Virus record (IMG/VR): IMGVR_UViG_3300045988_142085
Coordinates: 1-64,000 of that record
Length of the DNA: 64,000 bases
Strand: one strand, 5' to 3'
From: a virus
The number at the start of each line of letters is the position of its first letter. Positions within the stretch are counted from its first letter, which is position 1. The translations under genes and the position numbers were made by a program. Positions 5,098 through 62,922 of the stretch are shown here, in pieces. The notes under the pieces are model-generated. The model had not been told where the DNA came from. It saw only the letters and a program-made list of their open reading frames with translations, and did no database searches.

Positions 5098-5099
5098 TT

Positions 5100-5366
5100 T
5101 TATTTACCTGCAATCTTGTCTACTTCTTTAGAAATCTCGTTCATTAGCAAAGTTAATTCACTAACGGCAAATTCTTTTGAAATGCATCCATTAGTATATA
5201 ACAATGAATATGCTTTTACATGATCATAAGATAAATCAGAACAGAATTGGTCGACAATCTTTTTGTTTGGCCAATCTGTATCTAAAATACTATATACGAT
5301 CTTATCTTTAGGATCATCCAAAAAAATTAAGATTTCGTCAGGAGAATACGCTACGTATTTCTTCAT
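5100..5366 (-). CDS. hypothetical protein
   Basis: 88-aa ORF, preceded on the minus strand by an extended -10 promoter (TGTGTATAAT, near 5425..5436). Confidence 0.4.
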   Translation of the reverse strand: MKKYVAYSPDEILIFLDDPKDKIVYSILDTDWPNKKIVDQFCSDLSYDHVKAYSLLYTNGCISKEFAVSELTLLMNEISKEVDKIAGK

Positions 5367-5455
5367 TCAATTTCCTTTCGCTAATTAAAATATATATTGT
5401 AATTACACTTTAATTATACACGATTTTTTGATTGTAAGCAAATAAAGGGAAGAAA

Positions 5456-5502
5456 GGGAGGGAACGGTGCCGCGAAAGCGGTGCCGGATCCTCCCAAATG
5501 AG
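5456..5502 (-). terminator. GC-rich hairpin with a GAAA tetraloop followed by a T-tract; intrinsic terminator
   Basis: GGGAGG...GGTGCCGC-GAAA-GCGGTGCC...CCTCCC. On the minus strand it is followed by TTTCTTCCCTTTATTT, downstream of the 5508..5702 gene. Confidence 0.5.
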
Positions 5503-5507
5503 AAACA

Positions 5508-5702
5508 TTAGTGTTCTTCTATAGATTCCAATAATCTTTTCGGAATGCATTCTTCTGACAAAACAATCTTTTGTTTACCATCTTTAATGTACTGAATGTC
5601 GATAGCTGTATTTTTGATATCGACAAGGCCTATGAAGACAGCTGGTTTTTTGCCATGCAAAATAATTTCACCAGGTTGTACATCATTCCAATTAACTTTC
5701 AT
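5508..5702 (-). CDS. hypothetical small protein
   Basis: 64-aa ORF. Confidence 0.35.
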   Translation of the reverse strand: MKVNWNDVQPGEIILHGKKPAVFIGLVDIKNTAIDIQYIKDGKQKIVLSEECIPKRLLESIEEH

Positions 5703-5870
5703 TATCGTCCTCGTAACTTATTGTATAAGAACACTAATATATATATTAATGTAACAATAATAAAAGTATAAAATACTGTTATCAATTGTCCGTTAAATAT
5801 ATTATATTGTGCTTCTACTATTTGCAATAAGCTAATAGCTAGAGATAATACAAATAAGTAATCTTTCATA

Positions 5871-6080
5871 TTAACAAGTAGTTAAATAATTTTCGAGCTC
5901 CTCAATAGATTTTAATTCGACTTGTTCATTGATCCCGTCGAATGCTAAAATAATATCCTGATAAATATCGAAGTACCATGTATTATTATTTTTGCTAGCA
6001 ATTACACGAGTACAATGATCTTTTTCAGAAATAATAGGAGACTCGAAACATTCAATGATTTTATTTAAAGCTAATTCCAT
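5871..6080 (-). CDS. hypothetical small protein
   Basis: 69-aa ORF. Confidence 0.35.
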   Translation of the reverse strand: MELALNKIIECFESPIISEKDHCTRVIASKNNNTWYFDIYQDIILAFDGINEQVELKSIEELENYLTTC

Positions 6081-6179
6081 TATTTAAATTTCTCTTTCTT
6101 AAATGTGTATGCATACCGTGGGCCCATATCTCTACGTATATCTCGACTCATTGTACCGATATGCATACAGTCTTTTATA

Positions 6180-17883: not shown

Positions 17884-17971
17884 TGGAGGAGAAGGTGAGA
17901 TTCGAACTCACGGTACGTTTCCGCACGACAGTTTTCAAGACTGTAGCCTTAATCCTCTCGGCCACTTCTCC
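17884..17971 (-). tRNA. tRNA-Ser (anticodon UGA), type II with a long variable arm
   Basis: GGAGAAGTGGCCGAGAGGATTAAGGCTACAGTCTTGAAAACTGTCGTGCGGAAACGTACCGTGAGTTCGAATCTCACCTTCTCCTCCA: acceptor, D arm, anticodon loop CTTGAAA, long extra arm, T arm, CCA. Confidence 0.8.
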
Positions 17972-18171: not shown

Positions 18172-18249
18172 TGGGAGCGGGAATGGGATTTGAACCCATA
18201 CTAGACGAGCTTATGAGACTCGTGTCTCTGCCATTTGGACTATCCCGCT
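18172..18249 (-). tRNA. tRNA-Met/fMet/Ile2 (anticodon CAU), uninterrupted
   Basis: AGCGGGATAGTCCAAATGGCAGAGACACGAGTCTCATAAGCTCGTCTAGTATGGGTTCAAATCCCATTCCCGCTCCCA: acceptor AGCGGGA/TCCCGCT, anticodon stem CGAGT/GCTCG, loop CTCATAA, T loop TTCAAAT. Confidence 0.7.
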
Positions 18250-22549: not shown

Positions 22550-22951
22550 TTATTTTTTATCGTCAACTGCAACAAGTTCTCCACCGACAACTTTCCAGAT
22601 TCTACCATCGGCAGCATCTTTGCCGATAATATCTTCTCGAGACATATAATCGAGAGAATCGTTAAAATCGTCATAGATTTCTTCGAGACCATCTTTAATA
22701 TAGTTATTCATAAAAACACTTTTATCGGGATATGGATCGACAAAAGCTTCTTCGATTTGACCTTTGCGAATACGATTATATTCTTCCATCGTCATAATAC
22801 ATCCAGTATTAACATGTTCGATAAAGAATTCTGGATAGCGAATTTGATCACCACTTAAACTCGAATAGAATCGGTCACCTTGCCAGATGACTCTTCGTAT
22901 TTGATATGCATCACGCATAATATCACCTTTATTTAAATAATATAGATTCAA
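22550..22951 (-). CDS. hypothetical protein
   Basis: 133-aa ORF; first gene downstream of the 1.8-kb non-coding region. Confidence 0.45.
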   Translation of the reverse strand: MNLYYLNKGDIMRDAYQIRRVIWQGDRFYSSLSGDQIRYPEFFIEHVNTGCIMTMEEYNRIRKGQIEEAFVDPYPDKSVFMNNYIKDGLEEIYDDFNDSLDYMSREDIIGKDAADGRIWKVVGGELVAVDDKK

Positions 22952-23490
22952 TTTGAAAGCATCTATATATTACTTATATCTTATTTCAATCGACTATATT
23001 TATCACATAATCGACTCAAATAAGATATTGTACTACCAGATAAAAGGTGTGTGTATGCAAATTATCGAAACACTGGTAGTACAAATCTTAAATTTTTGTT
23101 ACGTAATTTAAATAAAATATTAAATATCACTAATTATTTTTGGCCGCAAGGATAGCCTTTAAATATTCTTTAAATATAAGCAAATTAGATTAAGTTTTCT
23201 TAAGATCGCAACCAATCCATAAATTGTTATTACTATATCAATCTGGAGACGCTCATGTAAAGTATGAAACTGTTAAAAATCGGATTACATTAGCATCGTA
23301 ACTTAATCATCGTAATCTGCTTAAATTATTTAACCTATCCTAACAGGAAACGTTTGTAAGTACTAAACGTAATCTTATAGCTTAAATATTATATTCTACA
23401 CAATAATAACTTTCCTGCGAGAGAAACGTTTAACTGCAGCTTATTAAGGAATCGCCGCCAGCTTATTTTAGAAGATTCATTCGCATTATC

Positions 23491-23596
23491 TAACACTCGA
23501 GCGACTGGCCAGAAATTGTAAATTAAAAAGATGTTATGTGTGCAATCATAACATCTCATTATTTAAACCGTTTAAGCTGCCAGTCGAATCAAACGT
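23491..23596. repeat. structured repeat unit, copy 1: outer stem CGACTGGC/GCCAGTCG enclosing inner hairpin GATGTTATG-TGTGCAATC-CATAACATC
   Basis: About 78% identical to copy 2. The inner hairpin differs by paired compensatory substitutions (GAUGUUAUG/CAUAACAUC versus GAAGUUAUG/CAUAACUUC). Confidence 0.6.
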
Positions 23597-23674
23597 TCTT
23601 AGCGAATGAATCATAGGATTCAGAATCATCAATATTGTATAGAGTATGATATTCTTGGTCACTCGCCATCATAT

Positions 23675-23776
23675 AACATTCAAGCGACTGGCGAGAGGTT
23701 GTAAATTAAAAGAAGTTATGTTGTGCAGCATAACTTCTCATTATTTAACACTCATAAGCGCCAGTCGAATCAAACC
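23675..23776. repeat. structured repeat unit, copy 2
   Basis: CAAGCGACTGGCGAGAGGTTGTAAATTAAAAGAAGTTATGTTGTGCAGCATAACTTCTCATTATTTAACACTCATAAGCGCCAGTCGAATCAAAC; outer stem of 9 bp. Confidence 0.6.
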
Positions 23777-23829
23777 TAAATGGCGAGTGAAAGCTATTCA
23801 AGATTTTTTATATCATATAAAATAGTGTA

Positions 23830-24760
23830 TTTTGTTTTCCTGTTTTATATAGACTAATCCCGTGCGGCAGCACGAATTAGTTAAAAATATATATACTATA
23901 TATTAATATAGTATAGTTTTGCTTCACTAGAAGTAATTGTTTCTTTATTACTAAAGCTCTTGACTACTTCCTACGATATTAGTCTGTAGAATACTCACGT
24001 ATTCCTCTCGTCTTTCCCGACATTTAGCGTTTCCGCACAATCGTAGATCCCGTCCTATTGCTGTATTCACCAATGAGGAGTGTCCTCTTATTTTTGTTTA
24101 AGAGGAACAACGAGTCCCCCCGGGTCTTATTTAACCATGGTAACTTTCTAAACTTAATTAACATTCTGTATCTTAACTGCAATGTTTTGTGCATTCGCTA
24201 CTTTAGGCTGTATACGGACTTATAACCTATTTGCCCGCTGACGTTGATCCTGCTAGTTCCGACTTGAGTACACAAAATTACTCTTGCTGGTCCGGGATAT
24301 AAACGGTATCGTATAGCTATCCTCTATATCCTATCCAACCACAAATCGCTATCGTTAACGACTACAGATCCTCTGATTTCTTATCAAATATCGGTCCGCA
24401 AAATGTAGCTGATCACCGAGTCGATTTTCCTAGATGCGCTCGACTACACACCGTTGTTACGCCTAACCTATATTAACCAATTAAGGCAGGACAGCATTAT
24501 CATCACGACAAGGCTTTCATGTCCTTTATAGGCTCGTAACCCGCGCCATCGGGGTCCATACTATAGAGTTCTTAAATACAGGGCCTCTATAATACAATGC
24601 CTTCCATTACGTTTCCATATGTATATTTGCACTCATACGTTGCAACTAGTGACATATTTCCATCGTCTATCCCTATGAAGACACAAGATAGTTTCGAAAT
24701 ACGATATATTAAATTGTTAACTTTATTATAAGATATAATTCGACGGTTGTCAAACTATAT
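23830..24760. ncRNA. candidate large structured non-coding RNA (alternatively part of a replication origin); about 900 nt, ORF-free in all six frames, GC about 45% against a background near 30%
   Basis: No ORF of 60 aa or more anywhere in 22952..24771. The strongly elevated GC and many local GC-rich hairpins (for example CGTGCGGCAGCACG and CCTCTTA-TTTTTGT-TTAAGAGG) suggest selection for RNA structure. Strand undetermined. Confidence 0.3.
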
Positions 24761-24771
24761 ATTACACGAAA

Positions 24772-27700
24772 TTAAAAACTTGACACAAAATTTTGCAATT
24801 CTTTTTTGTACGAATTTTCATACCGATATAACTTTTGGTTATGACTAAATCGAGTCCGCACGTCAAGAAGTAAATGATATTGGTTATCAAGATTAATCTT
24901 TTGTTTCTTTAACGGCTTCTTTGCCAAAACGATTCGTTCAAGTTTGAAGCTATCCATATCAACGATCTTTTCGACCTTATCGGCATACTTGTTGATCGAG
25001 ATAACATCGTCGTCATTTTCATATTCGACTTTATCTAACATATCTCTATAGATAGCATTAGTATTATCTTGATTGCCGCTAACAAGACTACTTAAACCTT
25101 CATCGTCGAAATCGCCTTCAAGAACTTTTACGCTCTTAAGCTTTTCGGCCATGAACTTAATTAATGTTTCTTGAACGGTGCCAGCATAATACATGTAATA
25201 GATGCTTACATTATTCTTTTGATTTAATCGATAACTTCTTCGAGCTGCTTGACGCATCGTAAAGAAATTCTGATCGAGTTCATAAAATACGATCGTCGTA
25301 AAATCTAATAAGTCTAAACCAGTATCGACCATACCAGGATTACAGATTACGACACGGACGCCTTCTGCTTTTTTCTTCTCGAACCATTCGATTCGTTTCA
25401 TGGCAGAAGTCGAGCTTTTAAGAATAGCTGTTTTAATACCTTCTTGTTGTAATCTGTCATAGATTATACTATTGATATCATTATTTGTATCGTAATAAGT
25501 ATATACTAAAACACATTCCTGATCATGGTGATTAATGATCTTCATTAGTTCGTCGAGCTTATGATTATCGCGAACACCGGTACCGCGATATTCGATATAA
25601 TCGTCGGCGATGAAGCATGGATTATCACTCCAAGCTGCAAGTTTTTTAATCTCCTGATGTTTATATCGAGCCGGAACAGTAGCATTAGATAAATTACTTA
25701 TTAAATTATTATAGGCTTCAATATTTTCTTTATTTAACTCACATTTAATAATAGATTCATTATAGGCCGGTAGTTCAGAACTAACGTCGTCCATTGACAT
25801 AAATACACAACAGTTACTTAATAACTTAATAAAGATATTAGGATTAATACCAGGAGCATCTTTTGTCTTAGTCGTACATTCGACATTAGCAGTAGTATTA
25901 CCTAATTTATCTTTTTCTAAGAACTGAACATTTAAATAGCGACCCCAGTTATGATTAATATACGTAAAGTCGACAGCATTTTCAAGTTTATACAACTGAT
26001 TTTCATAAGGAGTATATTCAACTTCCTTATAGCTATAACGATCTTTAAATTGCTTTTTCATGCCTCCACGGAAGTCTGGATTTCGCTTCATATATTCTTC
26101 GTATTCATTTTTAATCTTCTCAGGATAAAAATACAAGAACATATTATATAAATTTTCAGCATAACCATTAAATAGTGTACCGGTTAATCCTAATATTTTC
26201 TTAGCACAAGAAGCTAATCGTTGTACACCATGACCTTGCGCACTATTCGTCAAGAATTCGTGCATTTCATCGACAATTAACATATCGACATTATGACGAC
26301 CCTTACGTTGAATATACCAGTCTAGACTAGCAAAATTAGCAGCTTTTTGTTCGCTAATATCGATCGCTTTAACAATTTGATCGATATCATAACTCATGAT
26401 ATTCTTGTTATCGATCTTTTTAGTATCGATTAAAGAAGCACATGCTTTAACTTTAGGAGCATCTAAGTAATCTCGATAACGAATTGTTTCTTCACGATCG
26501 CCTTTTTTGTGCTCAGACTTAGAATGAATTCTTAAATATCGAATATAGCCCCATTCATTTCGACCATCGACTAAAATAATACTATCCTTTTTTTCTTTAT
26601 CTAATACATTCTTAACATGTTTTAAACAATCGATACTAGTATTTCTAGTTTTAATAACGGATTGTTTAATGCAATTAGGATTAACAAGAATATAATTAGT
26701 CGATAATCGTTTATTAATTTCTGGTTCAATATGTTCGATATATTCTTTGGTGCTATTACATTCATAGATTTTAGCATTAGGAGCCAAGATATTAATATCT
26801 TTACTCCATTTTTTAATTAAATGAGTCGGGCATACAACGAATACATTTTTATTTAAACCGCTTTTCCATAAACTAGCAATACTAATAGCCATACTAGTTT
26901 TACCGGTACCTGGTTGAGAAATTAAAAAGCCAGCTTTTTCTTTTTTAAGATGGCGATGCATCGCATTAATGATATTCTTTTGATTTGTAAACAGATTAAA
27001 ATCACGTTTATAACCTAAATAATCACTAAATGCTTGGACTTCAGGATCGAAACCTTTGTTAGGATCGAATGTAATATTAGTCGATTTATTTACAGTTGCC
27101 GATAAATCGTTAATATTATTATAAATGAAATCGTTAATTGTCATGTCTTCATGAATATAATCGGCATTTTCACCGTCATCGGCATCCCTAACAATATCTT
27201 CGACACTGTCGGTATAATATCCGTAAGCCGGCATTTTGAATATCGTAAATTCTAATTCTTTATTTTCGATAACATAAGAATTATCGAGAGCTTTATTAGT
27301 ATTAAAGAATAAATCGACAAGGTTTTCGTTAAAGAATGAGCCATTAGCCTCTTTATTTAAATACTCGATATAGTTAGCGACTAGAATTTCTTTATTTTCA
27401 CGAATATAGTCGGATTTTAAAAAATCTTTTTTATACTCTAAAATAACGCTATCCTTATTGTCGCCTAGTAAAAATAATACATAGAATTTATTCTTAGTTT
27501 CAGCATAAAACCTATGCATATTATATGGAAGATTAGATAAATTATTGTTAGATGTTATTGTACAATCTCTTATTTCTTTACGAAATTCATAATTATATGC
27601 TTTCTCAAAATACTCGAGAGTGTCTTTTATTTTTTTGTTATAAGACTTAGATCCTGTACTATAGAGATCTAATAATACAAACGTATCAAAATCTGTAAAT

Positions 27701-27798
27701 ACTTTAGCGGCTAAGTCTTTATATTTTTTATCGAAATTAAAAAAGGCTCTACCAGATTTCTTGGAGAGCTTTTTAATTTGATTAATATCTATTTTCAT
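24772..27798 (-). CDS. SNF2-family (SF2) DNA helicase/translocase with a 290-aa N-terminal domain
   Basis: Walker A ISQPGTGKTSMAI; DEMHE (DExH); SNF2 motif III-IV LGLTGTLFNGYAENLYNMFLYF; motif VI MRQAARRSYRLNQ. Confidence 0.75.
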   Translation of the reverse strand: MKIDINQIKKLSKKSGRAFFNFDKKYKDLAAKVFTDFDTFVLLDLYSTGSKSYNKKIKDTLEYFEKAYNYEFRKEIRDCTITSNNNLSNLPYNMHRFYAETKNKFYVLFLLGDNKDSVILEYKKDFLKSDYIRENKEILVANYIEYLNKEANGSFFNENLVDLFFNTNKALDNSYVIENKELEFTIFKMPAYGYYTDSVEDIVRDADDGENADYIHEDMTINDFIYNNINDLSATVNKSTNITFDPNKGFDPEVQAFSDYLGYKRDFNLFTNQKNIINAMHRHLKKEKAGFLISQPGTGKTSMAISIASLWKSGLNKNVFVVCPTHLIKKWSKDINILAPNAKIYECNSTKEYIEHIEPEINKRLSTNYILVNPNCIKQSVIKTRNTSIDCLKHVKNVLDKEKKDSIILVDGRNEWGYIRYLRIHSKSEHKKGDREETIRYRDYLDAPKVKACASLIDTKKIDNKNIMSYDIDQIVKAIDISEQKAANFASLDWYIQRKGRHNVDMLIVDEMHEFLTNSAQGHGVQRLASCAKKILGLTGTLFNGYAENLYNMFLYFYPEKIKNEYEEYMKRNPDFRGGMKKQFKDRYSYKEVEYTPYENQLYKLENAVDFTYINHNWGRYLNVQFLEKDKLGNTTANVECTTKTKDAPGINPNIFIKLLSNCCVFMSMDDVSSELPAYNESIIKCELNKENIEAYNNLISNLSNATVPARYKHQEIKKLAAWSDNPCFIADDYIEYRGTGVRDNHKLDELMKIINHHDQECVLVYTYYDTNNDINSIIYDRLQQEGIKTAILKSSTSAMKRIEWFEKKKAEGVRVVICNPGMVDTGLDLLDFTTIVFYELDQNFFTMRQAARRSYRLNQKNNVSIYYMYYAGTVQETLIKFMAEKLKSVKVLEGDFDDEGLSSLVSGNQDNTNAIYRDMLDKVEYENDDDVISINKYADKVEKIVDMDSFKLERIVLAKKPLKKQKINLDNQYHLLLDVRTRFSHNQKLYRYENSYKKELQNFVSSF

Positions 27799-28312: not shown

Positions 28313-29575
28313 CTAAGAAACCCTTATTCTTTTAGGCGTGTCCAGTTCGCCTCTACTGCATAAGATTGTTAAATCTACAGCGCTACTTTTGCGAAGAATA
28401 TTTAATGCTCCATTACAATCTGCATTAAAAAGATAACCATCTTTAGTTTTATATAAACCTCTTTTAACGCGTTTACCACTAAAATCATAAGTTTGTGGAT
28501 TATCCATATTATAAACAGGCAATTCATCATTATCAAAAAAACTAGCTTTAGACGTATAAGATTCTTCTTGTAAGATATAATTAATATTATATCGTTTACA
28601 TAAATATTCTAATTTTTCTCTTATTTTACCGAATGGCAACTGAGTAAAAATTTGATTAGTTTTTTTACCTAAGTTAGTTTTATTTTGAAATGATTGATTG
28701 TAACCAATTACTAAAGTACCAATATCATTAATTAAACAATAGTTAATAATATAACGACATGCTTTATTGATATAATCATCAACTCTATTTTTTCTCTTAC
28801 GAGAAATTAAATATTGTTGTTTTGTATGTCGTCTAATATTTTGTTTATCTTTGATAGATTGTAATTTTGCATTTTGCTTATTAAAGAATTGATTAATAGA
28901 CTTTAATTTTCTTCCATCAATGATAAAAGATTTACCTGTACTAGTAACACAAGTACATAGATTATTTACGCCTAAATCAATAGCCAGTGCATTGTTAGTA
29001 TTTAATTGTATATCTTCTTCTTGAATTTCGTAAGTATACTGAATCTCGAAGAACCTAGCATTAAATTTAGGAATAATTTGAATTTCTTTTATCTTCTTAT
29101 CTTCTAATACTTTAGGAATTTTAATTTGAATTTTAGTTTCATATTTTTTCTTAAAAGTATTAGAATATGGAATTGTTAAAACATTGTCTTTTCTAAGCCT
29201 AATTTGACCAATTATTAAATTTGAATAACTATTTTTAGGTAAATATTTTGGCATTCTAATATGTTTAAAGCTATATTTACCTTGCTTAGCTAATTTAATT
29301 AGAGTAAAAAATGATTTGAACATTGCGTCAACGTCTTTAAGGGTTTGTTGGGCCATATTGGAATTTAACAATTTATAATTATCAGAATTCTTTAATTCGT
29401 GATAATTAGATTCATATCTTAAATATTGCTTTTCTTGCAAATAATGTTGTCGAACATTATATATTGCTTGATTAGTTAAATTCTTAGCTATTCTACACAA
29501 CTCTCTTAAAACATTATATTCTTCTTTAGTTAAGTGTTTTACTTGTTGCTTTATCGTTAGATACATTATGATCAC
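28313..29575 (-). CDS. tnpB: TnpB (OrfB) RNA-guided endonuclease of the IS200/IS605 family
   Basis: RuvC-I AIDLGVNN, RuvC-II QEESYTSK, RuvC-III NADCNGALNILRK; N-terminal OrfB_IS605 helical region; 420 aa with no frameshift. Confidence 0.85.
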   Translation of the reverse strand: MIIMYLTIKQQVKHLTKEEYNVLRELCRIAKNLTNQAIYNVRQHYLQEKQYLRYESNYHELKNSDNYKLLNSNMAQQTLKDVDAMFKSFFTLIKLAKQGKYSFKHIRMPKYLPKNSYSNLIIGQIRLRKDNVLTIPYSNTFKKKYETKIQIKIPKVLEDKKIKEIQIIPKFNARFFEIQYTYEIQEEDIQLNTNNALAIDLGVNNLCTCVTSTGKSFIIDGRKLKSINQFFNKQNAKLQSIKDKQNIRRHTKQQYLISRKRKNRVDDYINKACRYIINYCLINDIGTLVIGYNQSFQNKTNLGKKTNQIFTQLPFGKIREKLEYLCKRYNINYILQEESYTSKASFFDNDELPVYNMDNPQTYDFSGKRVKRGLYKTKDGYLFNADCNGALNILRKSSAVDLTILCSRGELDTPKRIRVS

Positions 29576-29689
29576 CTCGCTTTCTAATATTATATTACAA
29601 GCTAATCATAACATATATTTACTGAAAAAGCAACTTTTTAGTAAAATTTTTACAGGACATTTTAGAACCATATTTCTAAAATCAATTAG

Positions 29690-30105
29690 AGGTCTCGTTC
29701 AGCCAAAGACGCTACTCTTTGACCGGCACCATTACATGCACCTTTAGCTTTCACTAAAGCACAGACTATATCTTATCCATATTATATTTTCATATAACTT
29801 AGGCGACACCACTTCCCCGGGCTTCCGGGTACGACCCTCACGAGGTCTAGTCGTTGAACCTTTCCTTAACAAAATATTAAGGCTTGGCTGCTGATCGTCC
29901 ATTATTACAAGACTTAGGGTTTAACCTTATCTCATCTCAGAAATTTATTTCTACTTTCGTAACTCGTGCAGCTAAGCCGCACAAGTATTCTGAGCTTTAG
30001 AAGTTTCCAGCAATTCAGTGTCTTTGTCGGACGGGTAAGAACCGTCACTACCTACTAGTTTCCCAATAGGCTTACTATTTTGTTAAAATATATCTTATGA
30101 TTAAA
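29690..30105 (-). ncRNA. group I intron catalytic core (the 5' module of the IStron)
   Basis: Minus strand carries P GAAUUGCUGGAAAC, Q GAUCAGCAGCC, R GGUUCAACGACUAGACC (close to the canonical GUUCACAGACUAAAUG), S AAGAUAUAGUCUGUGC (canonical AAGAUAUAGUC), and a P2 hairpin GACGG-UUCUUAC-CCGUC. Confidence 0.6.
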
Positions 30106-30115
30106 ATCACAAGTG

Positions 30116-33962: not shown

Positions 33963-34538
33963 TTATTTAACATAGAAAGCATCATCACGATCTTCATATC
34001 GAACATTAGTTAATTCTTTACCGTTAAGTAATACTTTACCGTCGACAAATTCAAGATCTTTTTTAAGATTAGACCAAGAGAATTTAGTAACAGTTTTAAA
34101 GTATTTTTCATCGTCAATACCTTTAACTTCTTTTTCGAGTTCGACATCATCGTGATCGATAAGTTTTTCTTGTTTACGATAGCCTGCAGTACCCTCGATA
34201 AATTTAACAGACTTTTTACCGGTTTGTTCAAGACTAGATTGAATGTACGGTTCTAACATTTGTTGTAACCGTTCAATTTCAAAATCGTAAGAACTGCATT
34301 TGCTATCGACAAACATTTTAACTTTATCTTTATAAAGTTTTAACATTCTTTCGGCTTCAGCAATGTCGTGTTCTTTTTGTTCTTGAAGCTCTTTAATGCG
34401 ACGAATCGTATAGTTTGCTTCATTGATAGTGCTGACAACAGCTAAATTTCGATTTTCCTCGTCGATGAAATTCTGAAGCTCTTCGGTAAAACCGAGTTCA
34501 GAATTCTTTTCATCTTCGATAAGATTTAATCCTAACAT
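33963..34538 (-). CDS. hypothetical protein; a Mu Gam-like protein is possible
   Basis: 191-aa coiled-coil-rich ORF between the primase and helicase genes. Confidence 0.35.
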   Translation of the reverse strand: MLGLNLIEDEKNSELGFTEELQNFIDEENRNLAVVSTINEANYTIRRIKELQEQKEHDIAEAERMLKLYKDKVKMFVDSKCSSYDFEIERLQQMLEPYIQSSLEQTGKKSVKFIEGTAGYRKQEKLIDHDDVELEKEVKGIDDEKYFKTVTKFSWSNLKKDLEFVDGKVLLNGKELTNVRYEDRDDAFYVK

Positions 34539-34772: not shown

Positions 34773-35035
34773 CTTACTATTTCTAGTAAGATCGGACTCT
34801 ATCTTTAATTTTTTATTTAAAAATTATTTCCTGTTCAATGTATACATTGTTTACTTATATCTTATTAAGATACTTTCAATAGTCTCTGAACCTTTATCTT
34901 TGTCACCAAAGATACTTGGCTGCGGATTGTCCAATCTTAATCTTTTTTACTGTATCAAGATAATTACTCTTGCCCCATATTATATCACTATATATGGTTA
35001 GTAGATTAAGCTCTAAGGAGATCCCCGTCAATTTA
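34773..35035 (-). ncRNA. group I intron (ORF-less, about 263 nt) in the helicase gene
   Basis: Minus strand carries R GGUUCAGAGACUAUUG (34892..34877), S AAAGAUAGAGUCCGAUC (34802..34786) and a P9 hairpin CUUACUAGAAAUAGUAAG ending in G. The 5' exon ends ...GCCCUCU (U). Splicing joins ...EQTHAL to FNTRMMNCQSAKYLIEMEP. Confidence 0.6.
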
Positions 35036-36321
35036 GGAAATTTAAAGAGGGCATGAGTTTGTTCACCCTCTGCGCCAGCGTTAGAAGCAATTAGGACATT
35101 ACATTCTTGTGTATTATTAAATTTTTGTAATTGATTATATCGTTCTTCACTTGAGTGAGAGCCATTAATAAAGGCGATTTGAATTCCTTTAAAACGATTT
35201 TCTAAATACGTTTTAAGAATTCCTTGTGCTGTTCTATACTTACAGAACACAACAACTTTTTCACCTTCACTTAAAATACTCTCGACTAAGTCTAAGAACA
35301 ATTCAATCTTTTCAGATTTTTCGCCAGTCACATATTCTTGTGCCGCTTTACTATCGCTTAGTAATAATAACTCATCACTAATAGTAAGCTCTTGAGCAAA
35401 TGTTTGTTTCATTAAGATCATATTATCGATCTTATTAAATTCTTCATTCTTTCTAGCTTCTTCGATCGAATTAAACCGTTCAAGCATAACTTCTTGTTGT
35501 GCTTTAAGATCTTTGATTTCTTCGAGGAGCTTATCACTCATAGCTTGTACTTTTCTACCTAAAGAGCAAAATTTTTGAGCGACGACAAGTTTAGGTAAAT
35601 GACTGCTTACTTCTTCTTTCGTTCGGATAATTAAATTATGTTTAATTTTATCGGTTAATTCTCGTTCATTACGAGAACCGATAATATATCCGAGACTATT
35701 CTTTTTGACATATTGTTTATCGAATTTATTTATATTAGTAAACAAATCTTTTTTGATAAATCTATATATGCCAAATATATCTCGAGGATTTTTTTGAATC
35801 GGAGTTGCTGTTGCTCCGAAAGTATACTTTATATTATTAAATTTATATAGGCTTTTACTTCGTTTGGCTTGATAGCTTTTTACATATTGTACTTCGTCGG
35901 CAAAAATATATTCTAATTTCATTGCCAACAAACGTTCTCGAACTTTTTCGTCGTTAAGCGTTTCATAGTTACAAATAAGTAAATCGCCAACAAACTGATT
36001 ATCGAAGTTTTTCTTAGCCTTTGCTGAAGTTTCTAAAATGCTCGGAATCAGATCACTAAACTTCTGAACTTCATGGAACCATTGAACTTTTAAACTACTT
36101 TTAACTACGATTAATCCTGGACCTTTTATTTTCTTACGGTCTAAAAGTTCTAGATAAAGATCGATCGCTATTAAAGTTTTGCCAGCCCCGCAGCTTGCGA
36201 CGATTAAGCTACCTTCATCAATATCGAGAAGTTCTTTTACGGCTGTCTTTTGATAATTATAGAGTTCATATTTACATTTACCGATACCTTCGATGCTAAA
36301 ATTCGGACAATATAATAGCAA
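35036..36321 (-). CDS. SNF2-family helicase, exon 1 (motifs I to V)
   Basis: Walker A SCGAGKTLIAID; DEVQ box FADEVQY; SNF2 signature FGATATPIQKNPRDIFGIYRFI; motif V IASNAGAEG. The track ORF 34903..36321 continues about 40 codons into the intron. Confidence 0.75.
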
Positions 36322-50512: not shown

Positions 50513-52348
50513 TTAGAATACGTCGTTTAACTCGTTTACTTTTTCGACTTTAGGAGTTTCACTGTTATAAGATTTAAATACTTTATATTCGGCCGGGATT
50601 TCTTTAACAAAACGGCTTGGTTGCATACGTTTAGGCACACCACCAATAACACAATAATTAAAGTAACTAATCATTAGCATTTCTTTCGCACGAGTCATCG
50701 CTACATACCATAGGCGACGTTCTTCTTCGATGCCGTGTGGTTCGTCGTAAGAGAACATATGCGGGAATAGACTTTCATTGCCACCGATAATGAAGACAGC
50801 TTCAAACTCTAATCCTTTAGAGGCATGAATAGTCATCATGCTTACTGCATTTTTCTCTTCGTCGATTTCGACGTCCAAGCTAGTGGACATAGTTGCTTCA
50901 AGAACTTCCGGGATTGTTTCGAAAGCATCGGCAACACGAATTAATTCGCGAACGTTAACCATGCGCTCCATAGTATTGCCATATACTGGAGCAACATGAG
51001 ACTCTTGATAATTAAATAATTCTAAGTATTTACGAATGATAAGACCAGGTAATACATTTTCTTCGGCATAAGCTTTAAGTTCATTCCATTTAGATAAAAA
51101 TGTTTTCACGCCGGCATATGCTTTACCTTTAATATCGTTAAGATTAGAATTGGCTTTATTTAACACATTATTAGATTCCCCTACCATTAATTTATTAAAA
51201 GTAGCTTCACCGATACCGGCTTTAGGAATATTAATAATACGTTCTAATGCTTCTTCATCGCATTCATTTAATAATAATCTTAATACACATAACAAGTCTT
51301 TAACTTCTTTACGAGTACAGAATTGCACACCAGAAATTAAATCGTATGGGATAGCATTACGTAAGAAAGCTTTTTCTACTAGATCAAATTGTTTCTTAGT
51401 ACGAGCCAAGATAGCAATATCTTTATAATCAAAACCATTGCGTAATAAAGATTTAATACCGCGAACGATATAGTTAGCTTCATCTTTATCGGATTTAACT
51501 TCTTTAATAAATACAGGAGCACCTTTTTCTTGCTCAGAGAAGGCTTTTTTGTCGATAATCTTAGGATTGTTATCGACAACAGCATTGCTAGCTTCTACGA
51601 TAGTGGACGTAGAGCGATAGTTTTGTTCCAATACATATTGCTCGAAACCATCATCAACAAGAGACTGACATAAAAAATCAATATCAGCACCACGAAATGC
51701 ATAAATACTTTGATTATTATCCATTACTGCGCATAAATTACCATTCTCACGAATGATCCAATTGATATATTCCCAATCTTTACGCCCAGAATCTTGAAAT
51801 TCGTCAGCTATGACATATGTATATTTATTCCAAACATATTCCTGAACTTCGCTATACTTACTAATTAATTCTAAACCATAATTTGCTAAATCGCCGAAAT
51901 CCATCATATTATCGTTACGAAGTTTTTGTTGATATTTTTCGTAAACTAAAAATACTGTGAAGTGATCGTTTTGAATTATTTTATCGTTACGAGCAACGTC
52001 GACTGTAATACCGTGAGTTTTCCAGTCAGGAATTTGAGTTTTTGCGATATCGTATAACTTAGAATTTTTACCGCAAAACTCTTTAATAATTTTTTCTGTA
52101 TCGTCGCTATCTGCAATAGTAAAATTCTTTTCGTAGCCAACAAGATGAGCGAAACGACGAAGTAGCATAGAACTGAAAGCATGATATGTACAAATTGTAA
52201 CGGCCTTAGCTTGCGGGCCAATTTTGGCGATCATACGCTCTTTCATTTCCATTGCAGCTTTACGAGTAAAAGTAAACATAAGGATAGAACCAGGATTAAT
52301 ACCTTGTTCGATCATATATGCTGTACGAGTAACGATAGTGCTAGTTTT
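50513..52348 (-). CDS. uvrD: UvrD/PcrA/Rep-family SF1 DNA helicase, exon 2
   Basis: Starts KTSTIVTRTAYMIEQGINPGSILMFTFTRKAAMEMKERM (motifs I and Ia). Later motifs present: DEFQD-type VIADEFQDSGR, and the C-terminal ...MTIHASKGLEFEAVFI...YVAMTRAKE. Confidence 0.85.
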   Translation of the reverse strand, partial: KTSTIVTRTAYMIEQGINPGSILMFTFTRKAAMEMKERMIAKIGPQAKAVTICTYHAFSSMLLRRFAHLVGYEKNFTIADSDDTEKIIKEFCGKNSKLYDIAKTQIPDWKTHGITVDVARNDKIIQNDHFTVFLVYEKYQQKLRNDNMMDFGDLANYGLELISKYSEVQEYVWNKYTYVIADEFQDSGRKDWEYINWIIRENGNLCAVMDNNQSIYAFRGADIDFLCQSLVDDGFEQYVLEQNYRSTSTIVEASNAVVDNNPKIIDKKAFSEQEKGAPVFIKEVKSDKDEANYIVRGIKSLLRNGFDYKDIAILARTKKQFDLVEKAFLRNAIPYDLISGVQFCTRKEVKDLLCVLRLLLNECDEEALERIINIPKAGIGEATFNKLMVGESNNVLNKANSNLNDIKGKAYAGVKTFLSKWNELKAYAEENVLPGLIIRKYLELFNYQESHVAPVYGNTMERMVNVRELIRVADAFETIPEVLEATMSTSLDVEIDEEKNAVSMMTIHASKGLEFEAVFIIGGNESLFPHMFSYDEPHGIEEERRLWYVAMTRAKEMLMISYFNYCVIGGVPKRMQPSRFVKEIPAEYKVFKSYNSETPKVEKVNELNDVF

Positions 52349-52692
52349 CAGATAGTTATTATCGCTGAGCTTTTTATCTCAGCCTCTGGAGATTTCTCTC
52401 ATTTTCATCGACTAGTCAGTTCTAGTCCAGCTTAGCGTACCTTTTCATCTCTTCCTAAATAGGACAAAAGTCTAAACAAGTGATGGGGCCTCTTGGAGAT
52501 ATTATATTCTTTATTTAAATAAAGGTTCAATCTCTACGCGTTGCGCCTGTTAATAATTTTAACTATTAACTTCGGTCTCTGATTAGCATATGTTTTTACA
52601 CTTAGCCTTCCAGTTTAATTCCCCATTAATAATCTAAGATCTTCGTTTAGAAGTTGATCTTAGACGGCAATAAATTTTTATAAAATTTCTTT
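52349..52692 (-). ncRNA. self-splicing intron (group I-like, second family, ORF-less, 344 nt) splitting the uvrD Walker A codons
   Basis: Exon 1 ends ...NAGAGSG (GGU) and exon 2 starts KTSTIVTRTAY, which restores GAGSGKT. The 5' exon ends in U and the intron ends in G. Long blocks are shared with the AAA-ATPase intron, including a P-like CUGGAAGGCUAAG. Confidence 0.65.
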
Positions 52693-52788
52693 ACCAGATC
52701 CAGCACCTGCATTAACGATAAATTTACCTTCAAATTTCTTCGCGACAGGCAGTTGTTGTTCATTTAAATTTTTTAATAATTCTGACAT
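52693..52788 (-). CDS. uvrD: UvrD helicase, exon 1
   Basis: MSELLKNLNEQQLPVAKKFEGKFIVNAGAGSG with an SD AGGAGG-like sequence upstream; too short to appear in the ORF track. Confidence 0.7.
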
Positions 52789-52903
52789 AGTATAATCCTC
52801 TCTAAATATTTTAATTACTTAGGCATACATCTTATTATATTATAGGCCATATGCCTAAATAATTAAAGCCGATAGAAATTAATCTATCGGCTCTTATAAT
52901 ATA

Positions 52904-53134
52904 TTAAATATTGTTAATGAATTCAGGTACACCATCATAGAATTCTTTTTTCTTAGAATCTTCTTCGGTTTTACCGTTCAACATAATTTTTTGAATTTCT
53001 TCTTGACAAGTTTGACCTACAAAACCTTGAGTTTCATATTCAACAGTACCGTCAGCCTTAATAGTAACTTCGATTTTTTTCATTTGAAAACCTCCTAAAA
53101 ATAAAATAGCGGGGAACGAGTCCCCGCATATCAT
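52904..53134 (-). CDS. hypothetical small protein
   Basis: 76-aa ORF. Confidence 0.35.
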   Translation of the reverse strand: MICGDSFPAILFLGGFQMKKIEVTIKADGTVEYETQGFVGQTCQEEIQKIMLNGKTEEDSKKKEFYDGVPEFINNI

Positions 53135-53135
53135 T
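53098..53135 (-). terminator. intrinsic terminator
   Basis: GCGGGGACTCGTTCCCCGC followed by TATTTTATTTTTAG on the minus strand, downstream of 53146..53562. Confidence 0.55.
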
Positions 53136-53145
53136 ATTTAAATTA

Positions 53146-53626: not shown

Positions 53627-53995
53627 TTAACTATTCTTACGAACAAATTCAAATTCTTTAGGAAAATATTTCTTAATGAATTCTTTTTTAACTGTATTTC
53701 TAATGTTTTCACTGTCAACACTATTATAATGCGGATTGCCAGGCGTGTCAAGAAATATGTTATTAACACTAGACAATAGATCGACTAAAGTACTATATAC
53801 AGGAACTGTTTGCTCAGTTAAGACTTTAAAATCTGAAATATTCTGAAGACAAATATTAACGTCTCGAATTAAGATATCGAGCTCTTTTTTCATTTGTTCT
53901 TCCGCTTTTTTATCTAACTTTTCAAACAGTAATTCTGCCTTTTTGCGATTACTTATTTGTCGATTACTATTAGGATCGAAAGTAACGATTGCCAA
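53627..53995 (-). CDS. hypothetical protein
   Basis: 122-aa ORF. Confidence 0.4.
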   Translation of the reverse strand: MAIVTFDPNSNRQISNRKKAELLFEKLDKKAEEQMKKELDILIRDVNICLQNISDFKVLTEQTVPVYSTLVDLLSSVNNIFLDTPGNPHYNSVDSENIRNTVKKEFIKKYFPKEFEFVRKNS

Positions 53996-61757: not shown

Positions 61758-62121
61758 CTTTTTGCCGTGGACTATATCATTATCCTATTATATATAGGAT
61801 ACCTAGTTTTTGGATTTAATGGGATTTCACCAACCCTAGATTAGGGCCCTACTCCTTTTGCCATATTTATATCTTAGCGTCTGGCCAATGGGATAGTCTC
61901 TGAACTTTATTCCTTTAAGAATATTAGCTGCTGATTATCTATTGTTATGTCACTTAGCACTGTCTCTAGCTTTTATTTCAGCATATGACAAACTAATTAT
62001 TTTTTCTGTCTTTCGACAACATTCACATTTATTATTTCTAATTATGTTGTAGTTAATTAGTTATTAAGAACTTCCAGCAATTTACTAGGTTTTCACATTG
62101 TATTACTACAATATGCCTTCC
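61758..62121 (-). ncRNA. group I intron (ORF-less, about 364 nt), recA intron 2
   Basis: Minus strand carries P AAAUUGCUGGAAG, Q AAUCAGCAGC, R GUUCAGAGACUAUCCC, S AAUGAUAUAGUCCACGG. The 5' exon ends ...CACGUGCU (U) and the intron ends in G. Splicing gives SKHVLQARMNS. Confidence 0.65.
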
Positions 62122-62438
62122 AGCACGTGTTTGGAGGCGACGCTTACGTCTTTAAGACTCTTATTAGCTTCGGATTCAGGAACCAAAGCTTTTAGAGTAT
62201 TAATACAGAACAAGTCTATAGCACCAGTTTGAATTAATGCTTCAGCTTGATCGATACAGTCTTCTGCAGTATGATCTCGATCATATTGAATGAAATAAAA
62301 TCGTTCTGGATCGATACCAAATTGATTGACCATATAATCTAAGCTTAAAGATGCTTCACTTTCAATCCATAAGGCAAAATGTCCTTCTGGATTTTCACGA
62401 TGCATTTTACCGATTGTTTCAAGCACTAAACTAGTTTT
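62122..62438 (-). CDS. recA: RecA, exon 2
   Basis: KTSLVLETIGKMHRENPEGHFALWIESEASLSLDYMVNQFGID...AIDLFCINTLKALVPESE (compare E. coli ...LDPIYARKLGVD...VDVIVVDSVAALTPKAE). Confidence 0.75.
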
Positions 62439-62652
62439 CCTTTATACCCTCGGTTTCCCGATATTTATTAGGGGAGTAGACTATATCATCATCTTAATTA
62501 AGATGTTCTGCGCTTCCGTTACGAATGTAACGTACTCCTTTCGGATAGTCGTTGGGGCGCAATTAAGCTGCCTGCTGATTACCTCGATGGGCTTCCCAGC
62601 ATATCACAGAATTTGCATATAATTATCACTAATTATAGGGGCAAAATTAATT
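62439..62652 (-). ncRNA. group I intron (ORF-less, about 214 nt), recA intron 1, inserted in the Walker A codons
   Basis: Exon 1 ends ...IAGVADSG (GGU) and exon 2 starts KTSLVL, which restores GxxxSGKTS. Minus strand carries P AUAUGCUGGGAAGCC, Q AAUCAGCAGG, R CCCAACGACUAUCCG, S GAUGAUAUAGUCUACUCC. The intron ends ...AAAGG. Confidence 0.65.
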
Positions 62653-62922
62653 ACCCGAGTCTGCAACGCCAGCGATAGTCGTAATTTTCCCAATCGGAAA
62701 ACCACCGCCAGTTGCTGCATTAAAGTTAACAGATGGTGTCGGAATAAATCGAATATTAAGCTGTTCCTGAACTTTAGGATCACTTAATCGACCGACAACC
62801 ATGTTGTTCTTTTTCTTAGCCAAGTTAGCCATTACAAGATCTAATCGCTTACGTCTTTCGACGTCAGTTAAGACTTGAGAATTGCTAGCTTCGACAATTG
62901 GTTCAGCTTTCTTTCTTGCCAC
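62653..62922 (-). CDS. recA: RecA, exon 1
   Basis: MARKKAEPIV...RKRLDLVMANLAKKKNNMVVGRLSD...NFNAATGGGFPIGKITTIAGVADSG (compare E. coli ...[31 protein letters not shown]). Confidence 0.75.

Follow-up and report, generated by a model that had tools for sequence, protein, structure and literature searches.

A conserved structured RNA of an apparently undescribed family beside the replication genes of jumbo phages

RESULTS

The longest ORF-free gap of the window follows a helicase gene

We analyzed positions 1 to 64,000 of the IMG/VR virus record IMGVR_UViG_3300045988_142085 (the window, i.e., the whole 64-kilobase [kb] stretch, to which all coordinates refer unless another locus is named) and focused on a candidate noncoding RNA in a gap without open reading frames (ORFs). 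This gap extends from 22952 to 24771 (1,820 nucleotides; nt) and is the longest without an ORF in the window. Its upstream border is a gene for a helicase of 1008 amino acids (aa), described as SNF2-type (24772-27798, minus strand), and its downstream border is a small ORF of 133 aa (22550-22951, minus strand). The longest ORF in the gap on either strand comprises 59 aa, in agreement with an earlier sequence-only reading of the window, which had noted that no ORF of at least 60 aa exists in 22952-24771 and had proposed a large structured RNA at 23830-24760. The minus-strand transcript that we predict, ~24718..23884, falls within these coordinates.

The GC content of 23830-24760 is 38.0% compared with 32.2% for the whole window; accordingly, the elevation that had been put at ~45% versus ~30% is real but was overstated. 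The block ranks in the top 5% of the 900-nt windows by GC content, and its richest 300-nt sub-windows reach 0.41-0.44. Because several coding stretches, e.g., around 19800 and around 1600, have an equal GC content, composition is weak evidence by itself. When folded, the minus strand of the block reaches a minimum free energy of −220 kcal/mol (z = −3.0), compared with −178 kcal/mol (z = −2.2) for its plus strand.

The noncoding block is highly conserved and is not translated

Using the helicase protein, we identified 16 contigs in IMG/VR of up to 231 kb, in which the helicase is 83-91% identical. The noncoding block is kept in 16 of these 16 contigs with a DNA identity of 86-92%; its core (24370..23925) is 94-100% identical and free of insertions and deletions (indels) in the 16 relatives, while the adjoining coding sequence is 81-97% identical. 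These data show that purifying selection on the RNA exceeds that on its coding neighbors. The exact core motif was found in the same 16 contigs only.

In a region this highly conserved and free of indels, a frameshift, an alternative genetic code, or an intron could also be masking a protein-coding gene, and the sequence-only reading had allowed for a frameshifted gene that homology would reveal. Codon phases and stop counts lent this no support. The number of variable columns per codon phase is flat in the block (40/54/43), while the flanking genes show an excess at the third position (12/6/50 and 9/10/48). All three kinds of stop codons are present in every frame, at 17-26 per minus-strand frame and 11-22 per plus-strand frame. 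Because all six frames hold TAA, TAG, and TGA, no stop codon reassignment rescues an ORF; with any single stop reassigned, the longest open run is 136 codons, and the flanking genes translate normally under translation table 11. Based on the flat codon phases and the stop counts, a hidden, frameshifted, or recoded gene was ruled out, with a residual probability that we consider negligible, and the results show that the block is not translated.

Compensatory changes preserve the base pairing of a single strand

To the sequences of this group of phages, referred to as clade 1, we added metagenome sequences, resulting in an alignment of 26 distinct orthologs for which a consensus fold was calculated using RNAalifold. 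The fold comprises 231 pairs in 36 helices, and 99.4% of the 6,001 pair cells in the 26 sequences are paired. Compensatory double changes are present in 28 pairs, compared with 10.8 ± 1.8 in 500 column shuffles, none of which reached 28, and they are found in 16 helices. When the 3′ partners were slid by 1-3 columns, 0-3 pairs had double changes and pairing fell to 34-46%. The pairs are also polar. At 28 of the 231 pairs, most sequences have a G·U pair, and the complementary strand would pair at 87.0% instead of 99.4%. Because these 28 pairs become A·C on the other strand, the element acts as a minus-strand single strand, and this asymmetry argues for an RNA and against both a DNA cruciform and a product of the plus strand. 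We conclude that compensatory changes keep the base pairs intact, and on one strand only; the results show an RNA gene with a conserved fold.

The clearest covarying helix (helix 28) is long-range, with a span of ~95 nt, and pairs CUCGUU at 24114-24109 with GACGAG at 24012-24007. Four of its six pairs have double changes, and all the variants observed (CUCGU/ACGAG, CUAGU/ACUAG, CUCAU/AUGAG, CUCAC/GUGAG, and CUUCC/GGAAG) are complementary. Thus, the homology search in related phages and the covariation analysis that the sequence-only reading had suggested as a check returned a conserved block with covarying helices, and the many short GC-rich helices noted at that stage were not only borne out but much strengthened by covariation.

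The RNA is shared by three clades of jumbo phages

Two further clades carry the element. Clade 2 was found by a search with the helicase protein (40-42% identity; contigs of 221-231 kb), and clade 3 was found via clade 2, to which its helicase is ~45% identical. The three clades share a gene order consisting of DnaG primase, the DNA polymerase III alpha subunit (Pol III alpha), a 378-aa ORF, the helicase, a gap without ORFs (1.8 kb in clade 1, ~1.9 kb in clade 2, and ~1.06 kb in clade 3), and a 120-133-aa ORF starting with MRDAYQIR. Hence, the RNA locus has a fixed place in all three clades, with the replication genes for primase, Pol III alpha, and the SNF2-type helicase on one side and a small conserved ORF on the other. 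Further downstream in clades 1 and 2 lie a gene for a large lysozyme/glucosaminidase and M23 protein and then tRNA genes. A more distant relative (L053), whose helicase is 30% identical, has neither the gap nor the RNA.

Using nhmmer, clades 2 and 3 were linked with E = 1e-19 and clades 1 and 3 marginally with E = 0.1-0.5, while clade 1 had no match to clade 2; therefore, homology was established instead from sequence anchors, synteny, and a covariance model. Five anchors in a fixed order (CCGGACCA, ACGUCAGSGG, AUGGUUAAA, AAUGUSRG, and ACUAAUAYC) occur once each in 32 of the 32 distinct sequences first examined. A covariance model of the 3′ 127 nt of the core, built from clade-1 sequences only, detected both of the other clades, with scores of 39.7 bits for clade 3 (E = 6.4e-7) and 24-27 bits for clade 2 (E ~1e-3). 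These matches are full-length and at the syntenic position, and the best match in control loci had E = 0.98. In the cross-clade alignment, 98.7% of the cells are paired, compared with 75.8% after shuffling and 37-46% with slid partners; 16 of 27 pairs have double changes, and the covariation score is 0.523 versus 0.198 in shuffles (0 of 500 reached it).

The distinct RNA sequences total 50, with 26 in clade 1, 18 in clade 2, and 6 in clade 3, and the RNA is ~835, ~655, and ~465 nt long in these clades, respectively. Counted from the helicase stop codon, the first anchor common to the clades lies 476 nt away in clade 1, ~165 nt away in clade 2, and 74 nt away in clade 3. Because the 5′ regions vary in length and sequence between the clades, we define the family by a conserved 3′ core (~370 nt) that follows a variable 5′ part.

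A three-anchor pattern had 32 matches among 2.9 million viral contigs, all of them in these phages. With a looser pattern, 39 matches were found in metagenome contigs, of which 35 are real and belong to the same three clades and 4 are chance matches; among one genome each of 185,579 prokaryotic species, there were 3 matches, all by chance, as they lack the other anchors. blastn with the block returned no match in 50,697 phage records, in which the helicase relatives are only 27-30% identical. The RNA family is restricted to a single lineage of jumbo phages of ~230 kb, including phages from human saliva. Two of the contigs (BNJT01000043 and BNJV01000936) belong to human-saliva assemblies (PMC7782811), and further contigs have identifiers that we take to be in the style of the Human Microbiome Project.

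The shared 3′ core contains a GAAA tetraloop and a receptor-like motif

The predicted transcript has a length of ~835 nt (23884-24718, minus strand, as are all the features in this section), with its 5′ end placed from the −10 box and its 3′ end from a T-run. The 5′ domain (24296-24718) is specific to clade 1 and includes the covarying helices 4, 8, 10, 11, 12, 14, and 18; no counterpart was detected in clades 2 and 3, the 5′ regions of which are shorter and different. The 3′ core common to the three clades (23929-24295) holds the five anchors.

From 5′ to 3′, the core includes the anchor ACGUCAG with hairpin H1 (GCGGGC...GUCCGU; helix 23; 24214-24244), in which the variants CG/UA/UG and GU/AU occur and for which direct reading gave equivalent stems of other sequence in clade 2 (GGGGU/ACCUC) and clade 3 (GCGGU/ACCGU). 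It is followed by a motif resembling the 11-nt GAAA tetraloop receptor (24135-24207), i.e., CCUAAA (24207-24202) and CAUGG (24139-24135) around helix H2 (GUAGC/GUUAC) with a variable insert. Between the 5′ strand (24109-24114) and the 3′ strand (24007-24012) of the long-range helix lies a GAAA tetraloop hairpin (AUUGUGCG-GAAA-CGCUAAAU; 24022-24041), the loop of which is unchanged among the clade representatives and throughout the cross-clade alignment. Next are a GUGA tetraloop hairpin (GGAAUAC-GUGA-GUAUUCU; helix 33; 23988-24005), whose third pair varies as UA/AU/CG/GU, and the conserved single-stranded anchor ACUAAUAUC (23975-23983), which reads ACUAAUAYC in all sequences of the three clades. 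At the position of the GUGA hairpin, clade 3 has a shorter hairpin (GUUAG-AUAC-UUAAC) and clade 2 has no clear equivalent. The core ends with a two-tier hairpin with an invariant GUAA tetraloop (helices 34 and 35; 23929-23971); across the clades, double changes are present in six of nine outer pairs and five of five inner pairs of this hairpin, while the loop is fixed.

A GAAA loop with its specific receptor is a classic device for locking a compact fold or joining large RNAs. The GAAA hairpin has the stems GCG/CGC, UUG/CGA, and UCC/GGA in the three clades, and its three loop-proximal pairs covary between the clades (GC/UA/AU, CG/UA/UG, and GC/CG/UA). In clade 2, the receptor is canonical (CCUAAG/UAUGG) in 18 of 18 sequences. 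It reads CCUACG/UAUGG in six of six clade-3 sequences and CCUAAA/CAUGG in 25 of 26 clade-1 sequences, the remaining one (L111) having UAUGG; from these variants, the closing pair is G·U, A·C, or A-U. The helix between the receptor strands differs in each clade and yet is complementary in each (GUAGC/GCUAC, GGAUA/UAUCC, and UAAGCA/UGCUUA). A canonical receptor around a helix arose by chance in 174 of 200,000 composition-matched shuffles (~9e-4). Thus, the RNA has a canonical 11-nt receptor in clade 2, variants of it in clades 1 and 3, and a conserved GAAA hairpin with a covarying stem. It shares with introns and RNase P the GAAA/11-nt module, in that every clade has a GAAA-capped covarying hairpin and clade 2 has the canonical receptor. 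However, this module is a tertiary motif and not a family, and our RNA has no exons, no match to an intron model, and no hairpin resembling domain V.

A predicted promoter and terminator flank the structured strand

A sigma-70-type promoter with 12 of 12 consensus positions was predicted on the minus strand at 24725-24753, beginning 19 nt past the helicase stop codon. It consists of TTGACA (24753-24748), a 17-nt spacer, and TATAAT (24730-24725), and would place the 5′ end of the RNA probably near 24718. The perfect sequence TTGACA-N17-TATAAT occurs at two sites only in the window, the other being at 53723-53751 (minus strand), inside or at the edge of ORF 53627-53995. A comparison of four clade-1 relatives showed conserved hexamers around a variable spacer. 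The predicted clade-3 promoter also has 12 of 12 consensus positions; the one in clade 2 (TTGACG-17-TACTAT) has 9 of 12, with a perfect TATAAT 3 nt further on.

At the 3′ end, an intrinsic terminator (AGCATAC..GTATGCT followed by T7; L034, 13795-13814) was called by the scan in clade 2, and direct reading indicated a bulged hairpin followed by U8 in clade 3. In the window, an AT-only hairpin formed by an inverted repeat and followed by a T-run (23883-23916, minus strand) is a probable weak 3′ end. The 3′ end in clade 1 is uncertain because this long AT-only hairpin is an insertion in 5 of the first 17 aligned sequences; the rest have a 5-base-pair AT hairpin with T5-8. Altogether, the sequence signals are those of an independent transcription unit, with a promoter and a terminator on the structured strand, the terminators of clades 1 and 3 being weaker or bulged.

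These signals also bear on the idea that the RNA is a cis-acting leader, i.e., a giant 5′ untranslated region, riboswitch, or antitermination element for the 133-aa ORF and the genes beyond it. The RNA is on the same strand as the downstream genes, and its terminator-like end could be an expression platform; the clade-1 terminator is weak, and more terminator-like hairpins lie within the repeat units described below. Against this, 0.5-1.1 kb of clade-specific noncoding DNA intervenes between the terminator and the next ORF, which makes a leader very unlikely; the ~370-nt conserved core with its tertiary motifs is far larger than known leaders; and, on direct reading, the terminator stems in clades 2 and 3 have no alternative pairing with the core.

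Downstream of the predicted RNA, a nested hairpin of ~130 nt is present in two copies that are ~75-80% alike (23660-23789 and 23476-23610, minus strand). In each unit, an outer stem encloses a middle stem (GACUGGC/GCCAGUC) and an apical stem that resembles a terminator and is followed by UUUUAAUUU. Two positions of the outer stem change from C-G to U-A between the copies, i.e., they covary, and covariation of the apical stem is seen from locus to locus. Two copies are present in the window and in L008, L011, L012, L014, L107, L074, and L096, while the other clade-1 loci have a single copy; a pattern for the unit, allowing up to three mismatches, had no match outside the gap. The unit may be the true clade-1 terminator, a separate small RNA, or a site acting at the DNA level. 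Directly after the RNA terminator, all three clades have a GC-rich hairpin with an internal loop and unrelated sequences (23853-23881 on the minus strand in the window; ~13838-13900 in L034; ~7170-7225 in L049). In clade 1, the 3′ arm of this hairpin (AUUAGUCU) has an alternative partner in the core anchor AGACUAAU (23984-23977), and pairing with the anchor was the choice of RNAalifold in the first alignment.

The location beside replication genes and the question of an origin

Because the locus lies directly downstream of the genes for primase, Pol III alpha, and helicase in three clades, has a strong predicted promoter, and is followed by AT-rich noncoding DNA with inverted repeats, we considered that the promoter might make a structured primer or R-loop RNA at a replication origin, as for ColE1 RNA II or phage T4 origins. 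We found no iteron-like direct repeats, and the cumulative GC skew falls monotonically over the 64 kb with no inflection near 23-25 kb. Moreover, selection has acted on RNA pairing (the 28 G·U pairs) and on GNRA and receptor motifs, for which a primer has no need. Although the roles of primer and structured RNA are not strictly exclusive, we regard an origin as highly improbable.

The RNA matches no Rfam family

The window was scanned against Rfam 15 with cmscan at gathering score, and 22700-25000 was scanned with permissive filters at E ≤ 10. No match to GOLLD, ROOL, HEARO, OLE, raiA, or an intron was found in the gap, either at gathering score or at E ≤ 10, and these families are therefore excluded as far as the models can see; the comparison with these models that had been named as a check on the sequence-only reading thus returned no family. 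In the clade-2 loci, only tRNAs were found at gathering score, and the clade-3 locus had no match to these RNA families at E ≤ 1. As a positive control, the same scan identified two group I introns on the minus strand (34773-35094, 66.2 bits; 62457-62662, 64.8 bits) and two tRNAs. The first intron lies between or overlaps ORFs 33963-34538 and 34903-36321, and the second lies between 62106-62426 and 62647-62922; because of these positions among ORFs, both introns probably interrupt genes. ARAGORN detected no tRNA- or tmRNA-like element in the gap.

We compared the RNA with both classes of self-splicing introns. For group I, there was no model match, the helicase ORF ends in a stop codon followed by the promoter, and no ORF fragments flank the RNA. 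Domain V of group II introns comprises 34 nt and is marked by an AGC triad, a bulge of 2 nt, and a GNRA loop. There was no Rfam match to group II introns and no reverse transcriptase ORF, and, on direct reading, the GAAA hairpin has 8-9 pairs without an AGC triad or a bulge.

Nevertheless, the RNA could be catalytic, representing a new ribozyme class that either processes itself or acts in trans on phage tRNAs or intron transcripts. Its size, its invariant single-stranded core (CCGGACCA, ACGUCAG, AUGGUUAAA, AAUGU, and ACUAAUAYC), its GNRA loops, and its GAAA/11-nt-type receptor are in agreement with this possibility, and such features are typical of large ribozymes, i.e., group I and group II introns and RNase P. 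The phage also carries two group I introns and tRNAs, and clade 1 lacks a strong terminator, so a 3′ end made by processing is conceivable. However, there was no match to an Rfam ribozyme or intron even at E ≤ 10, while the scan found both real introns; the RNA has no flanking exons, its GAAA hairpin is unlike group II domain V, and tertiary motifs of this kind are also found in noncatalytic RNAs. Based on these considerations, a ribozyme is unlikely; it would in any case still be an RNA that depends on its shape, differing from our main reading in its activity.

The RNA might also be a very divergent GOLLD, ROOL, OLE, raiA, or HEARO/omega RNA that the Rfam models missed. It is phage-encoded, has a length of ~0.5-0.85 kb and a conserved 3′ and variable 5′ part as in GOLLD, has tRNA genes nearby, and lies 3.5 kb from a TnpB gene upstream. 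Against these similarities stand the lack of a model match (E ≤ 10 in the window region; E ≤ 1 in the clade-3 locus) and the sporadic occurrence of TnpB, and we find this possibility hardly credible.

The TnpB-type protein (420 aa; OrfB_IS605 and Cas12f1-like TNB domains; 28313-29575, minus strand) is encoded beyond the helicase gene, just upstream of a 161-aa ORF that precedes the latter. Among the 36 related loci checked, TnpB is present in 3 (L001, L002, and L009); it lies at different places in L001 and L002, and the contig end truncates the L009 copy. Clades 2 and 3 lack it in the DNA examined. TnpB is therefore a mobile element that is active, or was so recently, in these jumbo phages. 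Because it is sporadic and at different places in relatives, our RNA is not its guide; a TnpB or IscB guide RNA (HEARO/omega, reRNA) was ruled out by this mobility, the lack of adjacency, and the lack of a HEARO match.

The RNA resembles GOLLD and ROOL in kind

GOLLD is described in PMC12286853 as a phage-borne RNA of roughly 800 nt with a conserved 3′ region, a variable 5′ region, tRNA genes nearby, and an unknown function; it occurs in prophages and phages, often beside tRNA islands, and forms a 14-mer cage. ROOL is described there as an RNA of about 600 nt from phages and prophages, with pseudoknots, that can be very abundant and forms an octamer cage. In cryo-electron microscopy (cryo-EM) work, GOLLD and ROOL are RNA-only cages and OLE is a dimer (PMC12286853).

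Like GOLLD, our RNA is phage-encoded, is ~800 nt long in its clade-1 version, appears as an independent noncoding unit, combines a conserved 3′ with a variable 5′ part, has tRNA genes nearby, and uses long-range or tertiary contacts. Specifically, it has the GOLLD traits of a 3′ core, a variable 5′ region, a location on phage contigs of 150-230 kb, and tRNAs 5.6-6 kb downstream, which amounts to a resemblance and not to membership. With ROOL it shares the property of being a large, structured phage RNA that looks independent of proteins, and the clade-2 and clade-3 versions are similar to ROOL in size. However, it has no match to the GOLLD or ROOL model, its conserved motifs differ from those of GOLLD and it has no embedded tRNA, its sequence and secondary structure are unrelated to those of ROOL, and it belongs to jumbo phages of ~230 kb that look virulent, at least some of them from the human mouth, in which its site past the replication helicase is fixed. 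Thus, the comparison with GOLLD and ROOL made in the sequence-only reading holds as an analogy, while membership in either family is contradicted by the lack of an Rfam match; as far as the two models can judge, none of their conserved sequence is present.

A smaller comparison is provided by the pRNA of phi29, an RNA of ~170 nt in small phi29-like phages that oligomerizes by loop-loop pairing on the portal. Both are structured phage RNAs with a strong promoter (predicted in our case), and pRNA acts via its shape and via RNA contacts between copies. pRNA has neither sequence nor structural similarity to our RNA, in which we see no sign of a packaging role.

Full-text literature searches and look-ups of terms in individual papers, among them a 2026 review of jumbo phages, returned no description of the RNA; a bulk IMG/VR motif catalog (mean motif length, 67 nt) might hold fragments of it. 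We conclude that it represents an apparently undescribed family that is GOLLD/ROOL-like in kind.

DISCUSSION

We estimate a probability of about 85% that the element is a real structured RNA that is transcribed on its own and represents a new family. The proposal of the sequence-only reading that the block is a large structured noncoding RNA, and not a gene, an origin, or a packaging (pac) site, is supported by the flat codon phases, the strand-specific covariation, and the promoter and terminator of its own that we predict.

Several points weigh against this interpretation. Identity within clades is 94-98% (mean column identity in clade 1, 94%), many helices, e.g., helices 24 and 31, are invariant and hence silent, and the consensus fold shifted in part between the 17- and 26-sequence alignments, e.g., in the pairing around GACCCG. 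The shuffle control is uncorrected for phylogeny and relatedness, and the cross-clade alignment was fitted to the covariance model, which favors the structure. The E values of the model are rough. The clade-2 promoter matches the consensus at only 9 of 12 positions at the 17-nt spacing, and the terminator of clade 1, an AT-only hairpin, is weak and changes its form among relatives; the RNA could extend into the downstream hairpin units. The receptors of clades 1 and 3 deviate from the canonical 11-nt motif, and docking is predicted from sequence. The transcript, its ends, and its abundance are deduced from sequence signals. Finally, the scaffold or self-assembly function considered next would follow by analogy.

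If the element is such an RNA, then host RNA polymerase would transcribe it from the sigma-70 consensus promoter past the helicase stop codon, and transcription would end at the hairpin and U-run. The GAAA loop would dock into its receptor, either within one molecule or between molecules, and lock a compact tertiary fold. The RNA might then act in trans through its three-dimensional shape, as an abundant scaffold or a self-assembling particle similar to GOLLD and ROOL that would bind or enclose a phage or host component during infection, rather than serve as a messenger, as an antisense regulator, or as a site in the DNA. By analogy with the RNA cages, we put forward this trans-acting scaffold or self-assembling particle tentatively, with the odds somewhat against it. 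In a more specific version, which we regard as doubtful, the RNA would be a fourth giant ornate class after GOLLD, ROOL, and OLE, specific to jumbo phages of the human mouth. Its copies would assemble in trans via the GAAA/receptor module and palindromic single strands (CCGG, ACGU, and UUAA) into an RNA-only particle, or it would be a new ribozyme, with a part in host takeover or genome replication.

To our knowledge, few bacterial or phage noncoding RNAs larger than ~500 nt with elaborate conserved folds are known, i.e., GOLLD, ROOL, OLE, and a few others. The functions of such large RNAs are still open despite cryo-EM (PMC12286853). A further, unrelated family would widen the class of giant ornate RNAs with three sizes (~465, 655, and 835 nt) that share one core, a recognizable tetraloop/receptor module, and a fixed site beside the replication genes of abundant human-oral jumbo phages. 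The 465-nt clade-3 RNA offers a natural minimal version for structural work, and the fixed helicase/primase/polymerase neighborhood is a testable lead on function. Jumbo phages, which have so far been studied for their proteins, can spend ~0.4% of the genome on one structured RNA.

Additional features of the gap and its surroundings

The rest of the gap (22952-23475, minus strand) is noncoding and 78-93% conserved in clade 1. A promoter-like site lies at 23261-23232 (TTTACA-18-TATAGT, with a TG upstream), and a 22-nt inverted repeat at 22976-23028 closely precedes the 133-aa ORF. The 133-aa ORF (MRDAYQIR...) has no match in Pfam or PHROG, although it is conserved beside the RNA in three clades. 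Three other ORF-free stretches of the window had no Rfam match at gathering score, i.e., 5098-6179 (1,082 nt), 52316-53145 (830 nt), and 29576-30115 (540 nt), the last of which lies upstream of TnpB and has a local GC content of 0.43.

The genes for tRNA-Ser(tga) and tRNA-Met(cat) lie at 17884-17971 and 18172-18249 on the minus strand, i.e., 5.6-6 kb downstream of the RNA on the same strand and past the lysozyme/M23 gene. A larger island of 5-6 tRNA genes occupies the corresponding position in clade 2 (~19700-20800 in L033, L034, and L036). Some 10 kb upstream of their helicase gene, the clade-2 phages also carry genes for YadA-like trimeric autotransporter adhesins with head, stalk, and anchor domains (L033, 1-51; L034, 1-10; L036, 1-1543), which are unusual cargo for a phage. 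These clade-2 adhesins hint at a diderm host, i.e., one with an outer membrane.

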